Of a DNA stretch of 64,000 bases, positions 2,512 to 54,631 are shown in pieces. Under the pieces are notes generated by a model. That model did no database searches. It had not been told where the DNA came from and saw only the letters and a program-made list of their open reading frames with translations. The translations under genes were made by a program, and so were the position numbers. Origin of the DNA: Candidatus Gottesmanbacteria bacterium (GTDB lineage Bacteria > Patescibacteriota > Microgenomatia > UBA10105 > UBA927); contig OY969569.1 in assembly GCA_963701185.1 (NCBI GenBank), forward strand, positions 181,735-245,734, given 5' to 3'. Numbering within the stretch: the stretch's first letter is position 1; each line of letters begins with the position of its first letter.

Positions 2512-3464
2512 CAGGGAAAAATATTTTAGTTACCGGAGGTACGGGTTTTGTCGGCAGCCATCTCGTTGAGGCTCTGATTAAGCTTGGGTCAACTGTTATC
2601 GTACCCTACCGCAGTATAGATCCGCGGTCTTACTTTTCGGCCCAGAAGCTTCATAAGAATACGATCATGGTGCAAGGCGATGTTAAGAATTTTCAGGAAG
2701 TATTTGATATTGTGACAAAATACGAAATTGAATATATTTTTCATTTGGCTGCCCAGGCGATCGTTACGACTGCATATCATAATCCACTGGAAGCCTTTCA
2801 GACGAACATCATCGGCACGGCAAATATTCTGGAAGCCGCGCGGCTCTATGGAAAAGTGAAAGGGATCGTTATTGCATCTTCCGATAAAGCATACGGAAAA
2901 AGCGATAAGCCGTATAAAGAATCGGATGCGCTAAGGGGGGATCATCCATACGAGGTTTCTAAATCAGCGGCTGATCTTATTTCGCAGACCTATTATAAGA
3001 CCTATAAATTACCGGTAGTTATAACACGGTTTGGAAATATCTACGGGGAAGGCGATCTTAATTTTTCAAGAATTATTCCCGGAGTCATGAAATCACTTAT
3101 AACAAAAGAAGAATTGGTATTAAGAAGCGACGGAACCCATGTCCGTGACTACGTTTATGTGAAAGATGTTGTAAGAGGTTATCTCTTTTTGCTTGGTAAT
3201 ATAGACAAAATTAAAGGAGAAGCATTTAATTTGTCTTCGAACGATACATATTCTGTTTTAGATGTCATTAAACATATCGGTAAAAAATTGAATAAAAAAA
3301 TTTCTTATACTATAGCCAATTCAGCCAAAAACGAAATACCATATCAACATCTCTCATACGAAAAAATACATAAACTTGGCTGGAGGCCGATATATTCTAT
3401 TGATTCCACACTTGTTCCAGTTAAAAGCTGGTACAAAAAAACTATCAGGGAAATTTCGACGTGA
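2472..3464 (+). CDS. rfbG: CDP-glucose 4,6-dehydratase (SDR family)
   Basis: LTGKNILVTGGTGFVGSHL aligns with WQGKRVFVTGHTGFKG, FHLAAQAIVTTAYHNPLEAFQTNIIGTANILEA with FHMAAQPLVRLSYSEPVETYSTNVMGTVYLLEA, and HPYEVSK with DPYSNSK (YxxxK), all against enterobacterial DdhB/RfbG. The 3' end of rfbF is overlapped; the real start may be ATG 2490 or 2499. Confidence 0.85.
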   Translation: METESGMESMESLTGKNILVTGGTGFVGSHLVEALIKLGSTVIVPYRSIDPRSYFSAQKLHKNTIMVQGDVKNFQEVFDIVTKYEIEYIFHLAAQAIVTTAYHNPLEAFQTNIIGTANILEAARLYGKVKGIVIASSDKAYGKSDKPYKESDALRGDHPYEVSKSAADLISQTYYKTYKLPVVITRFGNIYGEGDLNFSRIIPGVMKSLITKEELVLRSDGTHVRDYVYVKDVVRGYLFLLGNIDKIKGEAFNLSSNDTYSVLDVIKHIGKKLNKKISYTIANSAKNEIPYQHLSYEKIHKLGWRPIYSIDSTLVPVKSWYKKTIREIST

Positions 3465-3471
3465 TTTTTGA

Positions 3472-4395
3472 ATGAATACTATGAAGAATTCAAATGGTTA
3501 TGCCCGTGATTCTAAAGTGAAAGTAGGAATAATCGGCACTGGAAATATCGGAACGGATTTGCTTGTAAAAATTCTTCGATCGAAATTACTCGAGTGCGCT
3601 ATCTTTACCGGGAAAAATATTAACTCGAAGGGTATGAAAAAAGCGAGGGCGTTAGGAGTGCGAACGTCTGATAAATCAATTTCTATAATAGAGCAGAACC
3701 CTGATTTGTGCGAGATTGTATTCGATGCTACTTCCGCGGAATCTCATGCGAAGCACGCACCGATTCTTAAAAAAATGGGTAAGTTTGTTATTGATATGAC
3801 TCCGTCCCGTATCGGGAAAATGTGTGTTCCAATGGTTAATTTAAAGGAAAGTCTAAATGAGTCAAATGTAAATATGGTGACCTGTGGAGGCCAAGCAACT
3901 ATTCCTATCGCGATAGCCATGAAGACAATTCATCCGGAAATTGAGTATCTTGAAATTGTATCCAGCATAGCATCGAAGTCTGCCGGAATCGGAACACGAA
4001 ACAATATTGATGAATATACTCAAACGACAAGCGATGGAATAAAGAAATTCGCAGGAATTCCTTCTACAAAAGCAATAATTATTTTAAATCCTGCTGACCC
4101 GCCGATTCTCATGCATAATACTATATATGCTTCGATACATAATCCCGATATTTCTGCATTAGATAAAGAAATACGACGAGTCGTTCGTGAAATCAAAAAA
4201 TATGTTCCTGGGTATCAGTTGGTATTAGGTCCGGTACATGAGAATAATAGAGTTACAGTAATGATAGAAGTTGTTGGTATGGGTGATTATTTACCTGTTT
4301 ATGCAGGCAATTTAGATATTATCAATCATGCTGCTATTCGGGTTGCAGAGGAGTATGTACGACATGAGCTAGCGAAATCGGGGAGCCATCAATGA
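3472..4395 (+). CDS. acetaldehyde dehydrogenase (acetylating), DmpF/MhpF/BphJ family
   Basis: VKVGIIGTGNIGTDLLVKILRS...FDATSAESHAKHA...NMVTCGGQATIPIA...SSIASKSAGIGTRNNIDEYTQTT...AIIILNPADPPILMHNTI...YVPGYQLV...GDYLPVYAGNLDI is a near-collinear match to acylating acetaldehyde dehydrogenases of meta-cleavage pathways. It is translationally coupled (ATGA) to the downstream aldolase, as in dmpFG. Confidence 0.85.
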   Translation: MNTMKNSNGYARDSKVKVGIIGTGNIGTDLLVKILRSKLLECAIFTGKNINSKGMKKARALGVRTSDKSISIIEQNPDLCEIVFDATSAESHAKHAPILKKMGKFVIDMTPSRIGKMCVPMVNLKESLNESNVNMVTCGGQATIPIAIAMKTIHPEIEYLEIVSSIASKSAGIGTRNNIDEYTQTTSDGIKKFAGIPSTKAIIILNPADPPILMHNTIYASIHNPDISALDKEIRRVVREIKKYVPGYQLVLGPVHENNRVTVMIEVVGMGDYLPVYAGNLDIINHAAIRVAEEYVRHELAKSGSHQ

Positions 4396-5402
4396 AAAAC
4401 GACATCATAATTATCGACTCTACATTGCGGGACGGTTCACATGCGATGCGTCATCAGCTGACAAAGGAACATATTCGTGATTATGCAAGAGGTGCAGAAT
4501 TAGCAAACACAAAAATTTTGGTAGTCGGGCACGGTATGGGCCTTGGGGCCTCTTCGCTTCAGCAAGGAAAATCACTCTTGTCAGATAGGGAAATGCTTTT
4601 TACTGCAAAAAAACAGCTAAAGAAAACAAAATTGGGTGTGTTTTTTATTCCCGGCTACGGAACGATAAAAAATGACATAGAACCTATTCTTTCTGTTGGG
4701 ATTGATGTCATTATGATAGCCTCGCATTGTACAGAAGCCAATGTTACGAGAGAACATATCCAATATTCCATTCGTAAAGGAATAAAAGTTTATGGAGTGT
4801 TAATGATGTCTCATATGGTTTCAGCTAAGATACTTCTGGAACAATCAAAATTAATGCAGGAATACGGGGTAAGCGGCGTTTTATTAATGGATTCAGCGGG
4901 TGCATATCTGCCAAAAGATGTGGCAAAAAACATCCGTACTCTTACGAGAGGTTTAAAAATTGACGTTGGTTACCATGCCCATAACAATTTAGGGTTGGCG
5001 GTTTCAAATTCCGTGATAGCCGTCGAAAACGGGGCAAAAATTATTGACGCGTGCTCACGGGGACTGGGGGCAGGAGCAGGAAATTGCCAGCTGGAAGTAC
5101 TGGTTGGTGTTCTTACCAAATTAGGATACAAGACGGGACTGGATTTATATACGTTAATGGATAACAGCGAAAATATTATCGCTAAGATAATGTTAAAACC
5201 TTTGGAAATTAATCACATTACGCTTATGGGAGGCATTACCGGCGTTGTGTCCGCGTTTGCCCCCCATGTGTTAAAAGCAGCCCAAAGATTCCATGTTGAT
5301 CCGCGAGACATATTAATACAATTAGGAAAACGACAGGTCGTAGGTGGTCAGGAGGATATTATTATTGACGTTGCTATGCAATTAAGCAAAAAAAGGAAAT
5401 AG
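4392..5402 (+). CDS. 4-hydroxy-2-oxovalerate aldolase-like (DRE-TIM metallolyase, DmpG/MhpE/BphI family)
   Basis: IIDSTLRDGSHAMRHQLT (DmpG: DVTLRDGSHAIRHQYT), IASHCTEANVTREHIQY (VATHCTEADVSKQHIEY), LMMSHM, HAHNNLGLAVSNSVIAVENGA, GLGAGAGNCQLEV, GLDLYTLMD and the C-terminal communication domain ending ...LGKRQVVGGQEDIIIDVA all match. Confidence 0.85.
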   Translation: MKNDIIIIDSTLRDGSHAMRHQLTKEHIRDYARGAELANTKILVVGHGMGLGASSLQQGKSLLSDREMLFTAKKQLKKTKLGVFFIPGYGTIKNDIEPILSVGIDVIMIASHCTEANVTREHIQYSIRKGIKVYGVLMMSHMVSAKILLEQSKLMQEYGVSGVLLMDSAGAYLPKDVAKNIRTLTRGLKIDVGYHAHNNLGLAVSNSVIAVENGAKIIDACSRGLGAGAGNCQLEVLVGVLTKLGYKTGLDLYTLMDNSENIIAKIMLKPLEINHITLMGGITGVVSAFAPHVLKAAQRFHVDPRDILIQLGKRQVVGGQEDIIIDVAMQLSKKRK

Positions 5403-7220: not shown

Positions 7221-8384
7221 ATGCTATTACAAAATGTTCCTCCACCGGATGAAATATTTCAGCTACATAAAGAGTTTCTCGTTGATCCCAGACGCAATAA
7301 AATTAACGGAGGAATCGGAGTTTTTCTCGACAATCTGGGAAATCCGTACGTGTTGCCTGCAGTTGGCAACGCAATTAAGTCTTTAACGTTTAGCAATTTT
7401 AATTATTTGCCGATTTCCGGCGAGCCGATATTCTTAGAAGAATCAACAAGACTTGTTTTTGGCAGTCTTCATTTTTTGCAATACAAAGAATATATTGCAA
7501 AGCAGGCAGTCGTAGGCGGTACGAACGGGCTTTATATTTGGGGAAGCACGATTGCGGACTCGGAATCAACACCAAAAATTATTATCGGCAGCCCATCTTG
7601 GGAAAACCATGTGAATGTATTTACCCGTCTTGGATTTCAAATTATTGGATACAATCATCTTGATAATGATAAGAAATTCAATTATGAAGGGTTACAAAAA
7701 ACTCTGGCACAGAATCCGGAAGCGTACGTTCTTTTTCACGGCGGACCTACCCATAACCCCACCGGTATCAATCCCAGTATAAGTCAGTGGGTACAGTTAA
7801 AAAATATTCTTAAGTCATCGCAAAATAAAGTTTTATTTGATTTTGCGTATATGGGATTGGGAGACAGCATTCAGTCAGACAGATTCCCCGTCAAGTTATT
7901 CACCGAAGCAAAAATACCATTATCTGTAATAATTTCATATTCCAAGAATATGAGTTTATATCAGCATAGGGTAGGGGCCATTTTAACTGTATGCAGGTCA
8001 AAAAAAGAAAAAGAAATACAAGAGAAATATTACACTAATGTTTTCCGTATTGTTAATTCTAATCCTCCTGCATTCGGCGAACACATTGCTAAAACGATCC
8101 TACTATCACGTTATTTAAAAGATGAGTGGTTTAATAATATAAAAAGCATGGTGCGTAATTTACGTGAGCGGCGTAAAGTTTTTGCGCGGTATGCTGGAAA
8201 AAGGTTTGAGCACGTTACCCGGGAAAAAGGATTATATAGTCTTCTTGATATACGAAAAGATCAGGTTCTGGCTCTAAAGAAGGACTATGGCATATATCTT
8301 TTGTCAAACGGAAGAATAAATTTCGGTGGAATTTCCTTGCCGGACATTCAAAAGGTAGCAGAATCTGTCAGGGATCTTTTTTAA
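7221..8384 (+). CDS. class I (aspartate/aromatic, AspC/TyrB-type) PLP aminotransferase
   Basis: KINGGIGVFLDNLGNPYVLP (AspAT: KINLGIGVYKDETGKTPVL), SPSWENHVNVF (NPSWPNHKSVF), LFHGGPTHNPTGINPS (LFHGCCHNPTGIDP), LFDFAYMGLG (LFDFAYQGFA), the catalytic lysine in ISYSKNMSLYQHRVGA (SSYSKNFGLYNERVGA), and SNPPAFGEHIA (SNPPAHGASVV). Confidence 0.8.
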   Translation: MLLQNVPPPDEIFQLHKEFLVDPRRNKINGGIGVFLDNLGNPYVLPAVGNAIKSLTFSNFNYLPISGEPIFLEESTRLVFGSLHFLQYKEYIAKQAVVGGTNGLYIWGSTIADSESTPKIIIGSPSWENHVNVFTRLGFQIIGYNHLDNDKKFNYEGLQKTLAQNPEAYVLFHGGPTHNPTGINPSISQWVQLKNILKSSQNKVLFDFAYMGLGDSIQSDRFPVKLFTEAKIPLSVIISYSKNMSLYQHRVGAILTVCRSKKEKEIQEKYYTNVFRIVNSNPPAFGEHIAKTILLSRYLKDEWFNNIKSMVRNLRERRKVFARYAGKRFEHVTREKGLYSLLDIRKDQVLALKKDYGIYLLSNGRINFGGISLPDIQKVAESVRDLF

Positions 8385-46945: not shown

Positions 46946-48217
46946 ATGACCGATCTTGATAAAATAGTAGCATTGGCAAAACGCCGCGGATTTATTTATC
47001 CGGGCAGCGAGATTTACGGCGGCATTGCGGGATTTTGGGATTACGGGCCCCTTGGAGTAGAACTCAAAAAAAATATTAAAAATGAATGGTGGAAATCGAT
47101 GGTTCAGATGCGTGATGACGTTGTAGGTCTGGATGCCGCGATCATTATGAATCCTGCCGTCTGGGAAGCCTCAGGGCATACGAAAGCATTTGCAGATCCG
47201 CTGGTGGAATGTAAAATCTGCCATAAACGGTTCCGGGCGGACAAAGAAGAACTCCTCCGCGAGCACGAAAAAACACATAAGGAAAAGGTGAGCTGGACGG
47301 AGCCGAAGCAATTTAATTTACTGACGGAGGTGTATCTCGGGGTTACCGAGCCCAAAGAAAAAGTGTATCTGCGCGGGGAAATCACCCAGGGCGTGTTTGT
47401 AAACTTTAGGAATGTTGTTGACTCCACCCGGATTAAGATTCCGTTCGGTATTGCCCAGATCGGGAAGGCATTCAGAAATGAAATCACGCCGGGAAATTTT
47501 ACATTCCGGTCGCGGGAATTTGAACAGATGGAATTGGAATTTTTTGTAAAACCGGGGGACGACAAATGGTTTGAATACTGGAAAGAAGCGCGCATAAAAT
47601 GGTACCAATCTCTTGGTATGGAGGCCGCGCATCTGCGCTTGCGCGATCACCGGGATGATGAACGGGCCCATTATGCCCGAAAAGCTACGGATATAGAATA
47701 TAATGCGCCGTTCGGATGGAGTGAATTTGAAGGAATTCATCATAGGGGTGATTTTGATTTGGGGAATCACAAGCTGAAGTATCGCGATGATATAGCAGGA
47801 GAGGAATATACGCCGTGGGTGATTGAAACATCCGGGGGCGTCGACCGCGCCGCGCTCTTTTTCTTACTTGAAGCATACGTTCAGGAAGAAAAACGGATAG
47901 TCCTAAAGCTTGATCCGAGACTTGCACCGAAAAAAGTCGCCGTATTCCCGCTGGTCGCCAACAAAGAGAATATTTCAGCAAAAGCTAAGGAAGTGTATGC
48001 AATACTTAAAAACAAATATATGACCGCCTGGGATGCCCGGGGCAACATCGGAAAGCGGTATCTTGCACAGGATGAGGCCGGTACGCCGATGTGCGTGACC
48101 ATTGACTACACGACGCTTGAAGATGATACCGTGACGGTCCGGGATCGTGATACAATGAAACAAGATAGAGTAAACATATCAAAGTTGATAGAATTTATTG
48201 ACGGGAGATTAGCATGA
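46946..48217 (+). CDS. glyQS: glycine--tRNA ligase (alpha2 dimeric class II form)
   Basis: LAKRRGFIYPGSEIYGGIAGFWDYGPLGVELKKNIKNEWW, the FRNEITPGNFTFRSREFEQMELEFF (class II motif 2) region, and the anticodon-binding C-terminus are collinear with GlyQS. Confidence 0.9.
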   Translation: MTDLDKIVALAKRRGFIYPGSEIYGGIAGFWDYGPLGVELKKNIKNEWWKSMVQMRDDVVGLDAAIIMNPAVWEASGHTKAFADPLVECKICHKRFRADKEELLREHEKTHKEKVSWTEPKQFNLLTEVYLGVTEPKEKVYLRGEITQGVFVNFRNVVDSTRIKIPFGIAQIGKAFRNEITPGNFTFRSREFEQMELEFFVKPGDDKWFEYWKEARIKWYQSLGMEAAHLRLRDHRDDERAHYARKATDIEYNAPFGWSEFEGIHHRGDFDLGNHKLKYRDDIAGEEYTPWVIETSGGVDRAALFFLLEAYVQEEKRIVLKLDPRLAPKKVAVFPLVANKENISAKAKEVYAILKNKYMTAWDARGNIGKRYLAQDEAGTPMCVTIDYTTLEDDTVTVRDRDTMKQDRVNISKLIEFIDGRLA

Positions 48218-48672
48218 ACAAAAAAACAGGTATTATTATCGGTGTTTTAGTACTTCTTTTGCTTGTTACGGGGTTTGTAGTTTACAAAGCGGTGTTTTCC
48301 GCAAAACCGGCAGAAGTGACGCAGGATTTGACGCCGGCGGTGGTTGCTCCCGTTGATGCGTCTATCAGTGTAGATCTTACCAAAAGTACGTCAGCGGCCA
48401 ACACAGTAATCGTTTCCGTCAAAGGGATGGGCGGCAAAATGACCAGTGTTGCCTACGAGCTGATGTATGAAAGCAAAGGAGTGACACAGGGAGTTACCGG
48501 AAAGAGCGTTGATGTGTCGGGAAAAGATACATTTGAACGGGATCTGTATCTGGGAACGTGTTCACGCAACGTCTGTACGCCGCATTTGGGTGTTACGAAA
48601 GTGAATCTGGTTCTCGTCTTTACCGACACGTCCGGCAAACAGAGCCAGTTCTCCAAAGATTACACGCTTTAG
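48214..48672 (+). CDS. hypothetical N-terminally anchored (secreted/periplasmic) protein
   Basis: MNKKTGIIIGVLVLLLLVTGFVVYKAVF is a signal anchor, then a Thr/Val/Ser-rich beta-type domain. Its last 12 codons are duplicated 1.45 kb downstream (see repeats). Confidence 0.5.
   Translation: MNKKTGIIIGVLVLLLLVTGFVVYKAVFSAKPAEVTQDLTPAVVAPVDASISVDLTKSTSAANTVIVSVKGMGGKMTSVAYELMYESKGVTQGVTGKSVDVSGKDTFERDLYLGTCSRNVCTPHLGVTKVNLVLVFTDTSGKQSQFSKDYTL
48635..48668. repeat. 34-nt direct repeat, copy 1 (native 3' end of gene 48214..48672)
   Basis: gcaaacagagccagttctccaaagattacacgct is identical to 50116-50149. Confidence 0.9.
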
Positions 48673-49286
48673 TCGCCGTGTATCGGTAGATAGTTGATGA
48701 TGTGCAATGTGGGTTCTCCTCGGGATATTTCTATTATTGTTAAAGATGCGTTTTTCATTCTCAACCCCTCAAGTTGCTCAGGTGAAGTATTCAAAAAAGC
48801 CCCCACAAGTATCCGAAGCGCCACGCCGTGAGAGACGAGAAGAATGGATTTGCCTGTATACTTTTTCAGTATTTTTTTCGTAAACTCACTCACCCGTTTT
48901 TTGATATCATTGACACTTTCTCCTCCCGGCGGGTGATAGTCAGGATAGTTCCATGTCTCACTAAATATGAGCGCCGGATGAAATTTGTTAACCTCTTCAT
49001 ATGTTTTACCTTCCAGTTCGCCAAATTGGCGCTCTCTAAGAGCATTATCTTTGATAATCGGTGCATTGTGATGACTATTAATGATCATCGCTGTTTCGTA
49101 GGCGCGTGAAAGCGGAGATGCGTAAATAATATCCAAATTAATCTTTTTAAGATGTGATGCAATCTCTTTAGCTTGCTGTTTACCTTTAGAATTAAGCGGA
49201 ATGTCCGTATGTCCCTGCATGCGGCTCCCTATATTCCAATCCGTTTCCCCATGCCGGACGATATAGATCATGGTTTTTTTGTTCAT
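48669..49286 (-). CDS. histidine phosphatase superfamily protein (phosphoglycerate-mutase-like, GpmB type)
   Basis: The minus strand reads MNKKTMIYIVRHGETDWNIGSRMQGHTDIPLNSKGKQQAKEIA...IYASPLSRAYETA (RHG catalytic motif). The track ORF extends to 49379; ATG 49286 matches family N-termini. About 38% GC. Confidence 0.75.
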   Translation of the reverse strand: MNKKTMIYIVRHGETDWNIGSRMQGHTDIPLNSKGKQQAKEIASHLKKINLDIIYASPLSRAYETAMIINSHHNAPIIKDNALRERQFGELEGKTYEEVNKFHPALIFSETWNYPDYHPPGGESVNDIKKRVSEFTKKILKKYTGKSILLVSHGVALRILVGAFLNTSPEQLEGLRMKNASLTIIEISRGEPTLHIINYLPIHGD

Positions 49287-49322
49287 ACGATTATTATAAC
49301 GAATACACCTAGGCTTATACAT

Positions 49323-49362
49323 AGTAGTTATTAAAAAAGCTATAGCATTAATAATAACTACT
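49323..49362. repeat. 40-nt palindromic element copy 1 (11-bp stem agtagttatta/taataactact, loop containing the 8-bp palindrome gctatagc)
   Basis: Perfect 11-bp inverted repeat with an 18-nt loop. It lies between the divergent histidine phosphatase and PaaX-like genes. Confidence 0.85.
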
Positions 49363-49377
49363 TTATATACTAAGTAC

Positions 49378-50084
49378 ATGAGGAGCCGGAAGTTTGGGAG
49401 AACAGCGCTCGCGCTTAGTGAGGGTATTTTTTCACATACGGTGGATTTCGGTTTGTGGGTATCAACGTATATTGCTCACTTGAGTATTCCTCAGCCGGTA
49501 TCCGGACAAAATTGGCGGGCAGTCGTTGCGGCGGACAAATTTTTACGTGACGTTAATTATGAAGTGATCAAAAATGCGATTCAGACCGCGCGCAAACGCG
49601 GGTGGGTAAGGGTTCGAAGAAACGCGTGTGGGAGGGACGAATGCATATCGTGACGTATGACATACCGGAAGCATATAAACACGACAGGGAGCTTTTGCGT
49701 GGATATTTACGGACCATTCGGTGCGGGAGGCTTCAGGATTCCGTGTGGGTGACGCCGTATAACCCTATTGATTTGGTCCGTTCGTTTGTAGAGTTGCATA
49801 ATATTCGAGGCACCATTATTGTGTCGGATATGGGTCGCGATGGGTCAATTGGCGAAGAAAATTTAAAAGGTTTGGTGGTACGCGTCTATAGACTTGAATT
49901 GCTGAATGAACGGTATAATGTATGGTTAGATACAAAGGGTTCACTTTTGGGGTTTCTCGCCATTTTGAAAGATGATCCACAACTGCCGTTTGCCTTATTG
50001 CCGGGATGGTGGAAAGGGGATACCGCCTATAAACTTGTCAAAGAGAAATTGGATAAAGTAGTTATAAAAAAAGCTATAGCATAA
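49378..50084 (+). pseudogene. PaaX-family-like regulator, apparently split (wHTH part 49378..49653; Cas2-like/PaaX_C-like part 49641..50084)
   Basis: ORF1 ends ...NAIQTARKRGWVRVRRNACGRDECIS, resembling the PaaX wHTH wing (NKEGWLDVSRIGRRSFYSL). ORF2 from ATG 49641 reads MHIVTYDIPEAYKHDRELLRGYLRTIRCGRLQDSVWV, the Cas2-like beta-alpha pattern (VTYD....R..L..L...G.R.Q.SV) also present in the PaaX C-domain. The frames differ by +2. The junction contains an imperfect 26-nt-period tandem repeat (49594-49636). The PaaX assignment is tentative. Confidence 0.35.
49594..49636. repeat. imperfect tandem repeat, period 26 nt (aaacgcgGgtgggtaagg / aaacgcgTgtgggaggg)
   Basis: 15 of 17 core positions are identical. 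The period is not a multiple of 3, and the repeat lies exactly at the frame junction of the split PaaX-like gene. Confidence 0.6.
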
Positions 50085-50097
50085 TTTATAACTACTT
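50056..50097. repeat. palindromic element copy 2 (13-bp stem aagtagttataaa/tttataactactt, loop again containing gctatagc)
   Basis: Same sequence family as 49323-49362. It overlaps the stop of the PaaX-like ORF, 19 nt before direct-repeat copy 2. Confidence 0.85.
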
Positions 50098-50115
50098 CCG
50101 ATAATCTTTATTTCA

Positions 50116-50149
50116 GCAAACAGAGCCAGTTCTCCAAAGATTACACGCT
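50116..50149. repeat. 34-nt direct repeat, copy 2 (orphan duplicate encoding the same C-terminal SKQSQFSKDYTL + stop)
   Basis: Identical 34-mer. Translated in frame it gives SKQSQFSKDYTL then TAA, against TAG in copy 1. Confidence 0.9.
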
Positions 50150-50153
50150 GTAA

Positions 50154-50429
50154 TTAAGCTCTTTCAACGCCGCGCATAAAATCACATTTTCCACAGATGA
50201 CTTTTATGATGCTTTCTTTTGGTACCTCCATGGTCTCATCAAATCCCTGAACAAAAATCGGTACGATGTCTCCTTCAATTGGTTTTGTACATCGACTGTC
50301 ATACAGAGTATGGTCAATCAGTGTTCCTGTCATGAAAGAACATGTTTTTGGATCTTCGCCACAGTTTTTTAATGTAGGCGGGAATGTAGGATTTGATGTT
50401 GGGCTTGTATACTGTGGTTTTTCTGCCAT
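50154..50429 (-). CDS. hypothetical small Cys-containing protein (possible zinc ribbon)
   Basis: This 91-aa protein has Cys pairs NCGEDPKTC and ICGKCDF. It is convergent with the 48214 gene in the inferred pre-insertion arrangement and divergent from mraZ. Confidence 0.4.
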   Translation of the reverse strand: MAEKPQYTSPTSNPTFPPTLKNCGEDPKTCSFMTGTLIDHTLYDSRCTKPIEGDIVPIFVQGFDETMEVPKESIIKVICGKCDFMRGVERA

Positions 50430-50492
50430 GGATCTGAATTTATAGCATAGAAATACCTCAAAGTAAAGGTGGGATACTTCCGTGAAATGGTA

Positions 50493-50556
50493 CTTGACAA
50501 CCCGTGAAAAATGGGTGACTATGGATATAGATGGGAAGATGTGGTAAATTTAGGGA
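50493..50556 (+). promoter_or_regulatory. mraZ promoter/operator region: consensus -35 TTGACA followed by four 10-bp-phased (A/G)TGG(G) repeats (candidate MraZ boxes)
   Basis: TTGACA lies at 50493-98. ATGGGtgact ATGGatatag ATGGGaagat GTGGtaaatt (50511-50550) has TGG at 50512, 50522, 50532 and 50542. AGGGA (50552-56) is a plausible SD 1 nt before ATG 50557. E. coli MraZ binds GTGGG direct repeats with 10-bp periodicity. Confidence 0.45.
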
Positions 50557-50961
50557 ATGAAGTTGTTCCTTGGGGAATACGATCATGCACTGGACGATCG
50601 GGGCCGCATAACGCTCCCGAGAAAGATTCGGCAAGAGTTGGACGAACGGGAAGTGGTACTGACGAGAGGGTTTGATACATGTATTTTCGGTTTCGACAAG
50701 TCCAGTTGGGAACGGGAAGCGGGAAAGCACCTTGAAACGCCGGTGACCGATAAAGAAGCCAGGGGTTTGCGCCGGTATTTGTTTTCCGGGGCGCAAAAAG
50801 CGGACATAGACAAGCTTGGTCGTATTCTTTTGCCTGCCCAGCTCAAGGAATATGCTTCGATTTCCCGTGAAGTTATAGTTATCGGTGCTGGAGATCATTT
50901 TGAGATCTGGGATAAAGAGAATTGGAGGAAATATGCCCTATCACACGCCGATAATGGTTAA
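50557..50961 (+). CDS. mraZ: transcriptional regulator MraZ
   Basis: MKLFLGEYDHALDDRGRITLPRKIRQEL (first MraZ repeat, DxxGR) and a second repeat, ...IGAGDHFEIWDKENW. It is the first gene of the dcw cluster. Confidence 0.85.
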   Translation: MKLFLGEYDHALDDRGRITLPRKIRQELDEREVVLTRGFDTCIFGFDKSSWEREAGKHLETPVTDKEARGLRRYLFSGAQKADIDKLGRILLPAQLKEYASISREVIVIGAGDHFEIWDKENWRKYALSHADNG

Positions 50962-51730: not shown

Positions 51731-52029
51731 TGAATCTATTACGGACAGCAGCCAAAAGCATACCGATCATTGTTATTATCCTCGTAGTGACCGAAATCCT
51801 TTGGTCCAATACCCTTGTGGTATCAGGGAAGCAAGTCAGTTCGGTAGACCTGGAAATTGCGGCTCTTCGCCAGAAGAACGAACAGCTTGCCCAACAGGTG
51901 GCATCAGCGTCGTCTCTGACAACAATTACTCTGAAGGCTGCTGAAATGGGATTTGTTGAGCCGACAGGGAAACAATTTGTTATGATAGGGAATGAGACCC
52001 TGCCCGTTGCTCTCAACCGCCAGCAATAA
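51727..52029 (+). CDS. ftsL: FtsL-like cell division protein (by position and architecture)
   Basis: 100 aa: a short cytoplasmic N-terminus, one TM (IPIIVIILVVTEILW) and a coiled-coil (DLEIAALRQKNEQLAQQVA). It lies immediately after rsmH, as ftsL does. Confidence 0.5.
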   Translation: MMNLLRTAAKSIPIIVIILVVTEILWSNTLVVSGKQVSSVDLEIAALRQKNEQLAQQVASASSLTTITLKAAEMGFVEPTGKQFVMIGNETLPVALNRQQ

Positions 52030-52052
52030 CCTTCGGATGATATAATGACGTC

Positions 52053-52946
52053 ATGGATGAACAATCCTTTTATATCGAGCAAAGTAAATATAGTGATCCA
52101 GGAAAATTCTCGCCCCTTTTTGATGTATTACCCGAAACGATAGTAGATATTTGCCATACCGTTCACAATTTACTGGTGCACCAAGATGACTTGTTTGACT
52201 TTTATCATTTCAAAGTATCCGCAGATAAACAACTTCAACCAAACATGAGATATATTGAAAAAATTGTTGAGGTTATTGTTCATAATAATAATTCCGCATT
52301 AAGTGAGCTAAGAAAACCACAAGAACGATTTATTGGTACATGCAGAGATTTTGCTTTCTTTACCTGTTCCATACTTCGGCATAAAGGGATTCCTGCTCGT
52401 GTGCGGTGTGGTTTTGCGAGTTATTTCCATTCAGACTGGTATTCTGATCATTGGGTTTGCGAATATTTTGATAAGAAATTAAATCAATGGTTATTAGCTG
52501 ATGCAGAATTGGGGAATGAAGAGAAAGAAAAATACCATATTGATTTTGATCCAGCAAATATATCGAGAGAAAAATTTCTTACTGCGGGAAAAGCTTGGAT
52601 AAAGGCTCGAAGGAATCAAATCAACCCAGAAATCTTAGGAGTAAAAGAAATAGATGTTAAAGGATTTTGGTTTATTAAAGCAGATGTTATCCGGGATCTC
52701 GCGGCACTCAATAAAATAGAATTACTTCCTTGGGATTATACAGAGTATATGGATCAGCCATACAAGAATTTAACAGAGCGATCTGACGACGAAATACAAC
52801 TTATCGATTCTGTTGCGGCAGTTACCTCACAAGAACCAATAAATTTAAATGAAGTTTTAGATTTTTACAAGAAAAATATAAATGTGCAAATAACGAATAA
52901 AGTTAAAAGCTATTCTTCAAAGGACCCGATAGACGTAACACTATAA
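52053..52946 (+). CDS. transglutaminase-like cysteine-protease-superfamily protein
   Basis: FIGTCRDFAFFTCSILRHKGIPARVRCGFASYF matches the transglutaminase-like core (G.C..FA.....R..GIPAR.V.G) with the catalytic Cys. About 34% GC, inserted between ftsL and ftsI. Confidence 0.6.
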   Translation: MDEQSFYIEQSKYSDPGKFSPLFDVLPETIVDICHTVHNLLVHQDDLFDFYHFKVSADKQLQPNMRYIEKIVEVIVHNNNSALSELRKPQERFIGTCRDFAFFTCSILRHKGIPARVRCGFASYFHSDWYSDHWVCEYFDKKLNQWLLADAELGNEEKEKYHIDFDPANISREKFLTAGKAWIKARRNQINPEILGVKEIDVKGFWFIKADVIRDLAALNKIELLPWDYTEYMDQPYKNLTERSDDEIQLIDSVAAVTSQEPINLNEVLDFYKKNINVQITNKVKSYSSKDPIDVTL

Positions 52947-52990
52947 CCATATTATGTGGCGCATCTGGACACTGTTCGGTTTCATAATGC

Positions 52991-54631
52991 TTGCTTTTTT
53001 CCGCAATTATCGTCCGGCTTTTTTACTGGCAGATTCTCCAGGGCGATTCTTTACGGGTTCAGGCAAACCGGCAGTATAACCTGGAATTAACTATTCCGGC
53101 CAGACGCGGTACGATCGCCGCCTCTGATGGGAGTCCGTTTGCCATGAACCAGCAGGGGTATTTGGTATATGCACAGCCGAAAGAAATAGAAAATGCAGGG
53201 ATATTCGCCAAAGTCGTTGCCCCGATATTGCATCAGGAAGAAGCGTCCATATCAGCAATTGTAACGATCCCCGGGCGTGTATGGGTGCCGCTTGCGCATA
53301 AGGTTGATGCATCGGTGAAAGATACGCTTTCGCTTTTGAATCTCAAAGGACTGGGATTTGAACCGGAGGCAAAACGGTATTACCCGGAGGCATCCATGGC
53401 AGCACAGCTTCTGGGGTTCGTGGGGATGGACCAGAACGGAAATGATCAGGGATATTTCGGTCTTGAGGGGTATTATGACCGCGAGCTGCGGGGGAGAGAC
53501 GGCAGTCTACAGCTTGAAAAAGACGTGCAGGGATCGGCCATATTGGTAGGAAATACCAAACGCATTGAAGCGGAGGATGGCAGGTCTCTACTTCTCTGGA
53601 CCGACAGGACGGTTCAGCAGATTGCCGAGAAGCGGCTGTCGGAAGGGATTAGGAAGTATGGAGCCAAAGCCGGTACGGTGACGATTATGGATCCTCAAAC
53701 AGGCGGCATACTTGCCGTTGTCTCCCGTCCAAGCTACGACCCCGCCTCATACCAGTCGTTTGATAAATCGTTGTATAAAAATCCGATCGTATCCCAATCG
53801 TATGAGCCGGGAAGCACATTTAAAGTGCTTGTTATGAGCGGGGCGCTCAATGAGCGATCCGTGACGCCCGATACCAAAGTGGACGAAAACGCTCCGGTGC
53901 CGATTGACGACTATGTGATACATACCTGGAATGATTCGTATCACGGCCCGATCACCATGGCGCAAATTCTGGAGTATTCCAGTAATGTCGGCATGGTATA
54001 CGTGGAGCAAAAAATGGGAAAAAAAATTCTGCTTAAATACCTTCATGCTTTTGGAATTGGGATGCCGACCGGCATAGACCTGCAGGAAGAAAGCTCTCCG
54101 GAGCTGCGGGCCGATAGTGAATGGAAAAATATCGATTTGGCGACTGCGTCGTTCGGACAGGGGTTGGCGGTAACTCCCATACAAATGGTCCGTGCAGTCG
54201 GTGCCATAGCAAACGGCGGTGTTTTAATGGAACCTCATGTTGTCCGTGAAATTATTGATGATACCGGCAAGAAGGTAAGTATACCGCCGAAGAAAATCCG
54301 TCAGGTCATAACGAGCAGTGCGGCTGCAGCTATTACCGAAATGATGATATCCGCAGTGGATTTAGGCGAGGCAAAGTGGGCAAAGCCTGCGGGGTACCGC
54401 ATTGCCGGTAAAACAGGGACCGCCCAGATTCCGGTTGCCGGCCATTATGACGCGACAAAAACAATCGCATCGTTCGTGGGGTTCGCGCCTGCCGACAATC
54501 CGAAATTTGTTATGTTGGTCACCCTAACGGAACCGTCAAGCTCACCATGGGGCTCTGAAACCGCCGCCCCGCTCTTTTTCAAGATTGCGAAAGATTTGTT
54601 AACCTACTACAGTATCCCCGCCTCGCAGTAA
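52991..54631 (+). CDS. ftsI: peptidoglycan D,D-transpeptidase FtsI (PBP3 family); N-terminus disrupted or uses a TTG start
   Basis: Transpeptidase motifs are GSTFKVLV (SxxK), YSSNVG (SxN) and GKTGTAQ (KTG). The track ORF begins at TTG 52991 inside the TM helix. An ATG at 52954 in frame +1 encodes MWRIWTLFGFIMLAFF, which would complete the TM anchor if one T of the T6 run at 52995-53000 were absent. Confidence 0.8.
   Translation: MLFSAIIVRLFYWQILQGDSLRVQANRQYNLELTIPARRGTIAASDGSPFAMNQQGYLVYAQPKEIENAGIFAKVVAPILHQEEASISAIVTIPGRVWVPLAHKVDASVKDTLSLLNLKGLGFEPEAKRYYPEASMAAQLLGFVGMDQNGNDQGYFGLEGYYDRELRGRDGSLQLEKDVQGSAILVGNTKRIEAEDGRSLLLWTDRTVQQIAEKRLSEGIRKYGAKAGTVTIMDPQTGGILAVVSRPSYDPASYQSFDKSLYKNPIVSQSYEPGSTFKVLVMSGALNERSVTPDTKVDENAPVPIDDYVIHTWNDSYHGPITMAQILEYSSNVGMVYVEQKMGKKILLKYLHAFGIGMPTGIDLQEESSPELRADSEWKNIDLATASFGQGLAVTPIQMVRAVGAIANGGVLMEPHVVREIIDDTGKKVSIPPKKIRQVITSSAAAAITEMMISAVDLGEAKWAKPAGYRIAGKTGTAQIPVAGHYDATKTIASFVGFAPADNPKFVMLVTLTEPSSSPWGSETAAPLFFKIAKDLLTYYSIPASQ

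Follow-up and report, generated by a model that had tools for sequence, protein, structure and literature searches.

The gap between geneX and mraZ in Candidatus Gottesmanbacteria, a member of the CPR (Microgenomates), holds a 1.45-kb accessory block enclosed by two copies of the 3′ end of geneX, and the recurrence of this duplication with varied cargo in related lineages marks a cassette hotspot between the two genes. In the stretch of 64,000 nucleotides that was analyzed (the window), the gene order at the locus is recO-glyS-geneX-variable gap-mraZ, where geneX is our label for the target gene at 48214..48672, a small conserved membrane-protein gene. CPR genomes are tiny and tightly packed, and the gain and loss of their accessory genes are little understood. 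The short duplicated gene end offers a reproducible footprint of cassette entry without an element-encoded recombinase, of which the window holds an old, decaying example, unremarkable alone. The literature yielded nothing on the geneX-mraZ locus or on PaaX-like genes in CPR. The locus and its repeat consist of the following features.

48214 to 48672, plus strand: geneX, 152 aa with one N-terminal transmembrane helix (ORF, orthologues, synteny)
48635 to 48672, plus strand: copy 1 of the repeat, the functional geneX end, with 34 identical nt and then T, TA and the TAG stop
50116 to 50153, plus strand: repeat copy 2, a non-translated gene end out of its original place, with a TAA stop
50154 to 50429, minus strand: orf91, a convergent ORF of 91 aa whose end lies 1 nt past the stop of copy 2
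50480 to 50961, plus strand: mraZ promoter block and mraZ, with repeated CGTGAAA(A)ATGG boxes and TTGACA (sequence comparison, tblastn)

The identical 34-mer GCAAACAGAGCCAGTTCTCCAAAGATTACACGCT reported in the original prediction is confirmed; the window contains it two times only, at 48635-48668, the true geneX end, and at 50116-50149. The copies lie 1481 nt apart, the repeat lengthens to 37 nt if one mismatch is allowed, and the 34-mer was absent from 100 dinucleotide shuffles even when up to 3 mismatches were tolerated. Copy 1 is the in-frame end of the geneX ORF, reading ...SGKQSQFSKDYTL with stop TAG, and copy 2 reads ...SKQSQFSKDYTL with stop TAA and lacks an in-frame start codon. Twelve duplicated codons had been claimed; the shared peptide and the different stop are real, but the 12th codon is GGC (Gly) in geneX and AGC (Ser) in copy 2, leaving 11 full codons and 2 nt of the 12th common to both. 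The tail of copy 2, CTG TAA T, equals the native geneX ends of L005, L008, L009, and L065 (L numbers denote the lineages and contigs compared), while that of copy 1, CTT TAG, is found in the window alone and overlaps the phosphatase stop codon. Because the tail of copy 1 is window-specific while that of copy 2 matches relatives, copy 1 looks like an imported replacement end. The idea that a small ORF ends in copy 2 was rejected, since no in-frame start codon is present in 6 of 8 lineages.

Neither chance nor misassembly accounts for the repeat, as judged from the shuffles and from independent assemblies. An independent short-read contig (L068), 99.9% identical to the window, starts inside copy 2 at 50120, and since an independent assembly thus breaks within the repeat, the latter is not an artefact; the duplication architecture was also independently assembled in L011, L065, and L073. 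When occupied and empty strain variants of the window's own species were sought, one other contig only was found, broken at the repeat. Comparison of orthologous loci likewise left the finding standing, as L011 and L073 share the gene order and are also duplicated. The block had further been described as a low-GC insertion bounded by the repeat. The drop in GC is real, if modest (0.42 in the low-GC region versus 0.49 upstream), but it is not limited by the repeat, with the PaaX part at 0.45-0.50 and low GC running on to about 50550.

An insertion with duplication at the gene 3′ end, as originally proposed, agrees with the closest complete relative, L005 (target protein 82% identical), where the gene end is followed by 148 bp and mraZ with neither cargo nor repeat, and the tails of the two copies fit as well. 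Homology to empty-site relatives restarts at the mraZ promoter block and mraZ (50480..50961). The intervening orf91, for which no family match was obtained, has no counterpart in L005 and represents an additional cassette or else the older occupant of the gap; a search of the window for a third gene-end relic between orf91 and mraZ found none. GeneX itself is kept between glyS and mraZ throughout Microgenomates, as traced by orthologues and synteny. No Pfam family matched its protein, whose most conserved part is the C-terminal SQFSKD[YF]xL, with invariant C-terminal columns.

Across 38 related lineages, the geneX-mraZ gap varies in length from 83 to 3407 bp and is unrelated in content; 21 of them have genes inside, in about 11 the geneX end is present a second time, and empty-site lineages such as L005 are scattered among the occupied ones. 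The cargo differs among lineages, comprising a phosphatase, a PaaX-like module, a RAYT-like gene or small ORFs, and the cassettes between geneX-end copies span 0.3-1.6 kb. PaaX-like and phosphatase genes are found in the gap of many lineages, and L012 holds a two-cassette array with three gene-end copies. The reported lack of an integrase or transposase was borne out, in that Pfam scans of every ORF lying between or around the copies, covering the window plus 20 further gaps, detected no integrase, serine recombinase/resolvase or DDE transposase. Y1_Tnp genes occur in L042 and L023 only, and the L042 copy reaches 55.6 bits against a RAYT cut-off of 80.

The first option of the original prediction was a classical integrase-bearing element of which most has since been deleted. 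The direct repeats derived from the 3′ end of an intact target gene are the classic attL/attR signature, and the GC of the cargo is lower, yet this history would have had to repeat itself about 11 times, leaving 0.3-1.6 kb on each occasion and never an integrase fragment, and the cargo genes have long resided at the locus. A one-off degraded element is contradicted by the same duplication in about 11 of 38 lineages with differing cargo, and such a remnant is therefore considered highly improbable.

The boundaries of the repeat follow a simple rule. On the right, the stop codon closes the repeat at all 10 junctions; on the left, it begins 28-54 nt upstream of the stop, with the starts clustered a few nt around a single Gly codon, and similarity past ~40 nt was not significant, with L073 as a possible exception. 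Across lineages, no conserved sequence was found on the cassette side of copy 2. The same type of duplication was observed at the unrelated YfhO/GT4 (YfhO|GT4) junction, where the repeat reaches the stop codon of YfhO itself and L075 has a true empty site. Reuse of the site by many lineages, the clustering of the geneX left boundaries at that Gly codon, the multi-cassette array of L012 and the lack of any recombinase in cis could all be understood if a recombinase encoded elsewhere acted in trans on the last ~37 nt of geneX as an att site, moving integrase-less cassettes in a CIME- or IMEX-like manner. We regard this as rather unlikely, because the cassette side of copy 2 lacks conserved sequence, the repeat has neither dyad symmetry nor structure (z -0.3 and -0.6 for the two copies), and the left boundary shifts between 28 and 54 nt. 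The GC skew keeps its positive sign across the locus, where all genes are co-oriented, and the lack of a skew switch means that the site is not a dif site. Moreover, as the unrelated YfhO end shows the same phenomenon under the same rule, a recombinase specific for the geneX sequence is unlikely.

The differences between the copies are equally informative. A hand count over the conserved SQFSKDYxL codons, copy versus copy, gave 27 changes, namely 18 synonymous, 6 family-tolerated, and 3 other, and both copies resemble functional alleles. Alleles foreign to the host lineage were seen in the tail of the L012 middle copy and in YEL versus YTL in L011, and lineage-specific codons are common to both copies within the genome, for example in the window, L065, L012, and L047. 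Such sharing is compatible with a single ancient duplication, or a degraded tandem geneX paralogue of which only the 3′ end is left, that would have been inherited vertically with occasional conversion from copy 1, turnover of cargo between the copies and repeated loss by deletion. Tandem geneX paralogues do exist in L002 and L003, the relic in the L062/L073 clade is inherited, the layout of PaaX followed by copy 2 is common to lineages as distant as 58% GlyRS identity, and PaaX tracks the backbone. However, a neutral 37-nt relic should be unrecognizable by now, given that the intergenic DNA of the window and L005 is already unalignable; conversion with free decay predicts many substitutions not tolerated in the family, whereas only 3 of 27 are of this kind; the L062/L073 relic decays without conversion; and the three copies of L012 together with the YfhO|GT4 pattern would need several independent ancient events. 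A single ancient origin is accordingly given a low probability.

The cargo matched its original description as a minus-strand histidine phosphatase (PF00300, 4.4e-63), a split PaaX/Cas2-like ORF (PF20803, 1.1e-13) and two palindromes.

48669 to 49286, minus strand: histidine phosphatase, branch 1, convergent with geneX (PF00300, His_Phos_1, 4.4e-63, 212.9 bits)
49323 to 49363, no strand assigned: upstream terminal palindrome, 41 nt, in the divergent intergenic region of phosphatase and PaaX (hairpin z = -3.3)
49378 to 50084, plus strand: PaaX-like gene with N-terminal region, Cas2-like PaaX_M domain and PaaX_C-like tail (Pfam)
50057 to 50097, no strand assigned: downstream terminal palindrome, 41 nt, overlapping the last codons and stop of the PaaX-like gene (hairpin z = -6.2)

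The TAA stop of the phosphatase overlaps the last codon and stop of geneX (CT[TTA]G), a 4-nt overlap also seen in L011 and L022. Its best NCBIfam match is CobC-like and below the cut-off, no NCBIfam equivalog cut-off being reached. Homologues sit in the same gap of other lineages, and that of L022 is 77% identical versus 65% for GlyRS and 53% for geneX, an incongruent phylogeny.

The PaaX-like gene of the window is a pseudogene, split by a ~70-nt internal deletion near 49620 as aligned with L065 and L011; more than 600 intact homologues of 255-280 aa were found. The PaaX_M score (PF20803) is 51.5 bits with a cut-off of 24, and that for PaaX_C 21.6 with a cut-off of 22, whereas the PaaX equivalog TIGR02277 reaches 42.6 bits against a cut-off of 264.55 with the intact homologue P0004, and the E. 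coli PaaX structure 8a39 is matched at E = 0.011. Judged from these scores, the protein is PaaX-like rather than PaaX. PADLOC defence-system models returned only weak Cas2 and PDC-S09 matches, and promoter and terminator predictions and an Rfam comparison contributed nothing informative. The palindromes, formerly listed as independent cargo, instead form the two ends of a discrete PaaX module of ~0.9 kb, which is also found in unrelated loci; the position of the upstream one is conserved, and its arms co-vary across lineages. The downstream edge of the module was set by the homology of L058 and L069, which are 87% identical over 913 nt from the outer edge of the upstream palindrome with unrelated flanks. 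A broader proposal, a hairpin before every second copy, was discarded; the MFE percentiles appear uniform (Fisher p = 0.69), and the palindrome claim is therefore confined to PaaX modules.

These properties raise the possibility of a transposition-like insertion with long target duplications tied to the palindrome-PaaX-palindrome module, which would then be a new mobile element with a wHTH and Cas2-like protein and hairpin termini, while other cargo would replace or join it later. The module is discrete and occurs in three different contexts, twice in one MAG. All seven lineages with PaaX at geneX have a gene-end copy after the downstream palindrome, 0-80 nt past it in six of them, that of L069 being a borderline relic of ~20 nt. 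The L058 insert, too, is flanked by a significant duplication, but it exceeds the module ends by 186 nt and 86 nt, and no flanking duplication was found around the recJ/aspS copy of L071. Furthermore, cassettes without PaaX (L001, L042, L047, and the second cassette of L012) are equally duplicated, the mainly synonymous copy differences misfit duplication in place, the PaaX phylogeny is congruent with the host, and the PaaX-like protein carries no known catalytic recombinase domain. Transposition tied to the module is likewise given a low probability.

The explanation that we tentatively prefer, with somewhat less than even confidence, is an insertion-duplication in which host recombination, guided by homology, took in DNA from related genomes. 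Briefly, donor DNA from a related genome, comprising a geneX 3′ end and whatever adjoined it downstream there, would enter the chromosome by recombining through the short geneX-end homology alone, either by a Campbell-type single crossover of a circularized fragment or by an equivalent one-ended, homology-driven capture. A complete end would stay on geneX (copy 1, partly donor-derived), and the resident end (copy 2) would be pushed to the far side of the cargo; later recombination between the copies would delete the cargo and restore empty sites. No element-encoded recombinase would be needed if host recombination acts after DNA uptake. The duplication, its recurrence and boundaries, the lack of recombinases in cis, the empty sites and the resemblance of both copies to functional alleles are observed; we infer the circular or one-ended intermediate, the uptake and host RecA as the catalyst, and the duplications suggest that one flank was used, not both.

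Several observations favour host recombination. The stop-codon boundary is exactly where the homology of donor and recipient would end; mostly synonymous differences are expected if the copies are functional alleles, not if one decayed freely; and about 11 of 38 lineages reuse the site with unrelated cargo, the L012 array included. Foreign allele states, the incongruent phosphatase, interspersed empty sites and the lack of a recombinase in any gap scanned point the same way, and Patescibacteria are naturally competent (PMC10633639), which was counted in its favour. Against it, homologies of 28-54 nt are poor substrates for RecA-type recombination, neither circular nor junction molecules were seen, the L062/L073 relic is clearly inherited and decaying, not newly formed, and the left boundaries near one Gly codon are tighter than random fragment ends, for which survivorship (long repeats being unstable) would be a post hoc account. 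The first-ever placement of cargo behind geneX is a further gap in this explanation. Since PaaX identity follows the backbone, any donors would have to be close relatives, unless the PaaX block was simply inherited. On the same grounds, and because PaaX-like and phosphatase genes sit in the gap of many lineages, the window's cargo is no recent foreign block; it is old, its PaaX-like gene being already a pseudogene.

A wider reading, a general cassette capture in CPR/Microgenomates combined with the PaaX unit as an unrecognized mobile module, is unlikely on present evidence. Capture may be independent of cargo and target conserved genes at their ends, with the final 28-60 nt of the upstream gene duplicated in each event, as seen here at two unrelated junctions, and the palindrome-PaaX-palindrome unit may take part in it or exploit it. 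Copy 2 may be retained because minus-strand read-through transcripts would be antisense to the geneX mRNA 3′ end. Should the cause be host recombination through very short, one-sided homology, gene flow in ultrasmall, naturally competent bacteria would resemble a broadened version of the Neisseria minimal mobile element (MME), and the footprint would serve as a genome-wide hotspot signature; should it be a dedicated enzyme or the PaaX-like module, a new mobile-element type would be implied.

A number of established classes were compared with the locus and rejected. Integron arrays combine IntI and attI with cassettes ending in structured attC hairpins; here there is no intI (upstream lie recO and glyS) and the repeat unit is unstructured. 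The template repeat of a diversity-generating retroelement is at least ~60 nt, differs from the variable repeat at adenines and has a reverse transcriptase nearby, whereas no RT domain was detected, the repeat is 34-39 nt, and the differences in other lineages are mostly at third codon positions and of all types. CRISPR arrays have regular 28-37-nt repeats, ~30-40-nt spacers and cas1, while only two distant copies exist here, with weak, sub-threshold Cas2 matches and no Cas1 match. An IMEX exploits a dif site at the replication terminus, a 28-nt site with two inverted arms, which neither the skew nor the 37-mer, lacking dyad symmetry, resembles. The window hairpins come without a Y1 protein, as would be needed for an IS200/IS605 unit or REPtron, and a viral-contig scan with the conserved gene-end pattern for a phage or plasmid attP gave one chance match inside a phage structural gene.

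Four known systems come closer. Integrase islands and prophages insert at gene 3′ ends, leaving attL/attR direct repeats and an element-borne replacement end, and their integrase-less derivatives are CIMEs. The locus shares with them the 3′-end repeats, the intact gene, the reuse of the site and tandem accretion (L012), but differs in the lack of an integrase in ~11 lineages, cassettes of only 0.3-1.6 kb, the lack of conserved element-side arms, the variable left boundary and a second, unrelated target. REPtrons and IS200/IS605-type units consist of a gene flanked by cognate hairpins and use an HUH Y1 enzyme. The palindrome-PaaX-palindrome module alone is comparable, with one gene between two lineage-specific hairpins at different chromosomal sites, and a RAYT-like gene with REP-like hairpins fills the same gap in L042; the window's protein is nevertheless a PaaX-like wHTH/Cas2-like one, not HUH Y1, and the hairpins are low-copy (two in 64 kb), the downstream one lying inside coding sequence. 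Known one-sided recombination cases use hundreds of bp of homology, and classical HFIR gives an insertion with a deletion. As in HFIR and related one-sided events, one-sided homology would be enough here, the segment is duplicated on both sides and no dedicated recombinase would be needed; unlike in those cases, the homology is 28-54 nt, the outcome is duplication rather than deletion, and no intermediate was observed. HFIR itself is referred to in passages of PMC3410848 and PMC8116780.

The fourth system is that of the MMEs of Neisseria, as defined in the relevant passage of PMC3082526, which cites Saunders & Snyder 2002 and Snyder et al. 2007. By that definition, variable and unrelated contents lie between flanking genes, which is what the 38 lineages display. 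Both systems have two conserved flanking genes (here geneX and mraZ), differing whole-gene cassettes, no mobility genes and a naturally competent host group, and in each case exchange is proposed to run through host homologous recombination. The exchange of MMEs takes a double crossover, one in each flanking gene, and leaves no duplication, whereas about half of the occupied sites here duplicate the last 28-54 nt of the upstream gene, a sign of one-sided homology or another mechanism. MMEs were also described within one genus, whereas the present pattern extends across a whole CPR class-level group.

The 34-mer GCAAACAGAGCCAGTTCTCCAAAGATTACACGCT occurs at two places in the window, 48635-48668 and 50116-50149; no further copy was found elsewhere in the window with up to three mismatches, nor any in 100 shuffles. 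The match lengthens to 37 nt with one mismatch. The first copy is the in-frame end of ORF 48214..48672 (referred to as geneX; ...GKQSQFSKDYTL, stop TAG), and the second (copy 2) would read SKQSQFSKDYTL, stop TAA, with no in-frame start codon, so the predicted gene end with a second copy using a different stop is borne out. An independently assembled short-read contig of the same species (L068), 99.9% identical to the window, starts at window position 50120, inside copy 2. Since such a break is expected of a k-mer assembly graph at a 34-nt repeat, the repeat is real and not an assembly artefact. The low GC claimed for the block also stood (0.42 between the copies versus 0.49 upstream), but not its bounding by the repeat, as the dip is patchy and runs on beyond copy 2 to ~50550. 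The four cargo features of the original prediction were all located between the copies:

Features between and just beyond the repeat copies in the window
48669..49286, minus strand, histidine phosphatase gene (His_Phos_1; PF00300, 4.4e-63)
49323-49363, 41-nt palindrome, upstream copy
49378..50084, split PaaX_M/Cas2-like ORF
50057-50097, palindrome, second copy
50154..50429, minus strand, 91-aa ORF beyond copy 2, extra relative to the related locus L005

Compared with two related loci (L065 and L011), ~70 nt have been lost inside the window's PaaX-like gene; the split thus reflects a real frameshifting deletion that makes this a pseudogene. If transcription of the 91-aa minus-strand ORF (50154-50429) continued beyond its stop, the RNA would be a perfect antisense match to the final 34 nt of geneX mRNA, and most lineages have a convergent ORF ending a few nt from a gene-end copy.

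GeneX encodes a 152-aa protein with an N-terminal TM helix, for which no Pfam family was found, and has orthologues in Candidatus Gottesmanbacteria and other Microgenomates. The order recO-glyS-geneX-[gap]-mraZ-rsmH-ftsL-ftsI is kept in 58 loci from genomes and metagenomes, with a geneX-mraZ gap of 83 to 3407 bp. Comparison with a locus lacking the insertion was provided by the closest complete relative, L005 (geneX 82%, GlyRS 88%), in which only 148 bp separate geneX from mraZ, with neither cargo nor repeat. Homology between the two picks up again near 50480, with the mraZ promoter block; the window's extra sequence relative to L005 therefore spans 48673 to ~50480 and includes the 91-aa ORF. 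Across lineages the gap is occupied by histidine phosphatase, PaaX-like genes, two Y1_Tnp genes and unknown small ORFs, and further by a toxin-antitoxin pair, a PLD-like protein and an ATPase, these last being typical accessory or defence-type cargo:

Accessory gap occupants in three related loci
L027, 691-1376, HepT/MNT toxin-antitoxin pair
L031, 1411-3297, HATPase_c_3 protein of 628 aa
L002, 6810-7568, PLD-like nuclease-family protein

Several features lie beside this gap. A diverged tandem geneX paralogue (24-26% identity) lies directly upstream of the orthologue in some lineages (L002, 5571-5861; L003, 2668-3054). Strong conservation between lineages is also seen upstream of mraZ (window 50480-50556; L005 6535-6610; L001 6860-6939), with two CGTGAAA(A)ATGG boxes around TTGACA and more GATGGGAAGATGTGG-like repeats, which are probably MraZ operator repeats. 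Downstream in the dcw cluster, a second low-GC insert (GC ~0.34; 52053-52946, flanks 52026-52052 and 52947-52990) consists of a 297-aa transglutaminase-core-like ORF placed exactly between the stop of ftsL and the start of ftsI, with the 6-mer ATAACC, TAA stop included, on both sides; it is present in L068 and absent from L005 and L001, where the genes are 7-9 nt apart. The window's ftsI 5' end (52977-53013) is frameshifted by a 1-nt insertion at 52993 and carries, in the same 37 nt, five clustered substitutions relative to L068, whose ftsI is intact (558 aa); the rest of the 5.8-kb overlap is identical, and the differences reflect either a local error of assembly or variation between strains at a recombination junction.

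Second geneX ends downstream of geneX were sought by a peptide-motif scan and then with an nhmmer profile made from 44 such ends. By our tally, at least one gap gene is present in 21 of 38 distinct informative lineages and a second copy in ~11:

Second geneX ends in related loci
L001 (=L014=L015), copies spaced 309 bp, cargo a 93-aa ORF
L047 (=L032), copies spaced 359 bp, cargo small membrane-like ORFs
L012, three copies forming two cassettes
L042, copies spaced 797 bp, cargo a Y1_Tnp gene (RAYT-like) and REP-like hairpins
L011 and L073, same order as in the window: phosphatase (minus strand), palindrome, PaaX, palindrome, copy 2
L065 and L029, copies bracketing the PaaX module alone
L062, second copy a decayed relic
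L069, second copy a borderline relic of ~20 nt

In L042 the REP-like palindromes (7477-7507, 7686-7751, 8172-8208; CAACCCCTGGGGTTG) flank the Y1_Tnp gene, which also holds a nested pair of the same palindrome within its coding region. The right edge of copy similarity coincides with the stop codon (0-2 nt past) in all ten junctions measured, and its leftward reach is 28-40 nt (54 nt in L073), with no significant similarity farther left. As had been claimed for the window, no integrase or transposase is present there, and no integrase, resolvase or DDE domain was found in any gap ORF of any lineage. Given that a small outcome of this kind, lacking an integrase, is seen ~11 times, the suggested degraded classical integrative element is unlikely.

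The palindromes, originally listed as separate cargo items, turned out to be parts of a PaaX module. At every PaaX locus examined (window, L009, L011, L065, L029, L062, L073, L069, L058 and L071), two copies of a lineage-specific ~40-nt palindrome bracket the PaaX-like gene, one 15-30 nt upstream of its start and the other overlapping its stop codon. Their sequence differs by lineage, self-complementarity and the outer arms GT(A/T)GTCAA...TTGAC(T)AC are kept, and they fold as hairpins (z -3.3 to -6.9). The encoded protein is PaaX-like only, with PF20803 above threshold and the TIGR02277 equivalog and 8a39 structure matches far below. The module occurs in three unrelated contexts, the geneX-mraZ gap, a YfhO|GT4 junction and recJ|aspS, and homology between copies stops at the palindromes:

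Positions of the PaaX module
L058, 3932-4833
L069, 2932-3844
L071, 2931-3830

L058, with PaaX in a glycosyltransferase cluster, and L069, with PaaX at geneX, are 87% identical over 913 nt, from the exact outer edge of the upstream palindrome to 12 nt past the downstream one, with unrelated flanks; one MAG holds two diverged modules (64% DNA identity), at geneX and between recJ and aspS. The module is therefore a discrete relocated unit, and may represent a mobile module not described before. In L069 a long (CT)n microsatellite (~2860-2900) separates the upstream palindrome from a 74-aa minus-strand ORF, and a third palindrome copy (4143-4185) follows a 61-aa ORF.

A second cassette hotspot, the YfhO|GT4 junction, has duplicated YfhO 3' ends in both L058 and L077. 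Its empty site is seen in L075 at 3905-3975 (same contig as L069), where YfhO runs straight into the next glycosyltransferase gene, GT4. L058 carries a ~1.2-kb insert with the PaaX module between two diverged junction copies (3681-3732 and 4920-4973; local alignment score 45 versus 16.8 ± 2.3, maximum 28, for shuffles), the left of which remains homologous to the empty site as far as the stop codon of YfhO itself. At the same place (3100-4110), L077 holds a HicB/HicA (HicAB) pair and an 83-aa ORF, and its 35-nt middle copy is 35/35 identical to the right copy of L058 within genes ~15% diverged. The YfhO relic common to both contains a -35-like CTGACA and may be a GT4 promoter. Duplication of a variable stretch of the upstream gene up to its stop is thus not specific to geneX sequence. 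A trans-acting recombinase would account for cassettes without their own integrase, but is improbable: one dedicated to the geneX end is disfavoured by the varying left boundary, the lack of conserved sequence on the cassette side, the absence of dyad symmetry or structure in the repeat, and the like behaviour of the unrelated YfhO end.

The origin of the copies is informative. The copy 2 tail CTG TAA T matches the native gene ends of L005, L008, L009 and L065, and the copy 1 tail CTT TAG, found in the window alone, goes with the phosphatase. In L011 the functional copy reads YEL and copy 2 retains the clade-typical YTL; the tail of the L012 middle copy resembles the tails of the window and of copy 2 of L011, not L012's own. 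A non-coding copy decaying in place was expected to show mostly disallowed changes. By our count of within-genome differences in the conserved SQFSKDYxL codons, 18 are synonymous, 6 give residues that other family members have, and 3 belong to neither group; both copies therefore look descended from functional alleles, which points to exchange between lineages. Transposition with a long target duplication, linked to the PaaX module, consequently earns little credence, since a duplication made on insertion and left to decay does not fit this bias. Lineage-specific codons are shared by both copies of one genome in the window, L065, L012 and L047, which means either that any donors were closely related or that conversion takes place; an ancient duplication kept up by conversion is a minor contender. 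Many lineages hold PaaX-like and phosphatase genes in the gap, in varying order, and in some of them no repeat was detected. PaaX identity to the window follows the backbone (75-79% where GlyRS is 84-86%; 59-62% where GlyRS is 58-60%), and the window cargo is not a recent foreign block. The L022 phosphatase is incongruent (77% identity to the window's, versus GlyRS 65% and geneX 53%), suggesting horizontal exchange. The window, L011 and L022 share one register in which the phosphatase stop codon overlaps the last codon and stop of geneX, so the copy 1 tail and phosphatase move together.

The simplest scheme that accounts for all observations, held tentatively and at somewhat less than even probability, is insertion-duplication via one-sided homology. 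Incoming DNA would comprise the upstream gene's 3' end and whatever adjoins it downstream in a related genome; as the neighbouring genes beyond it are not the same, homology would reach no further than the stop codon. Through a single crossover, or a capture of equivalent effect, the cargo would come to lie between two gene ends, and later recombination between the copies would restore the empty site. Patescibacteria are documented to be naturally competent (PMC10633639). Against one-sided homology, 28-54 nt is short for RecA, left boundaries are clustered, the L062/L073 relic is simply inherited, and no intermediate was observed.

Within this recurring pattern, the window's own feature is an old example in decay. 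Literature was found neither for this locus nor for CPR PaaX-like genes. Hotspots and insertion-duplication are already known phenomena; the Microgenomates pattern, in which a duplicated gene end marks cassettes lacking an integrase at both junctions, is, taken with the hairpin-bounded PaaX-like module, a new form of them. The Neisseria 'minimal mobile element', as defined in PMC3082526, is a variable cassette between two conserved genes, which the geneX-mraZ gap matches; the duplicated gene end goes beyond that definition.
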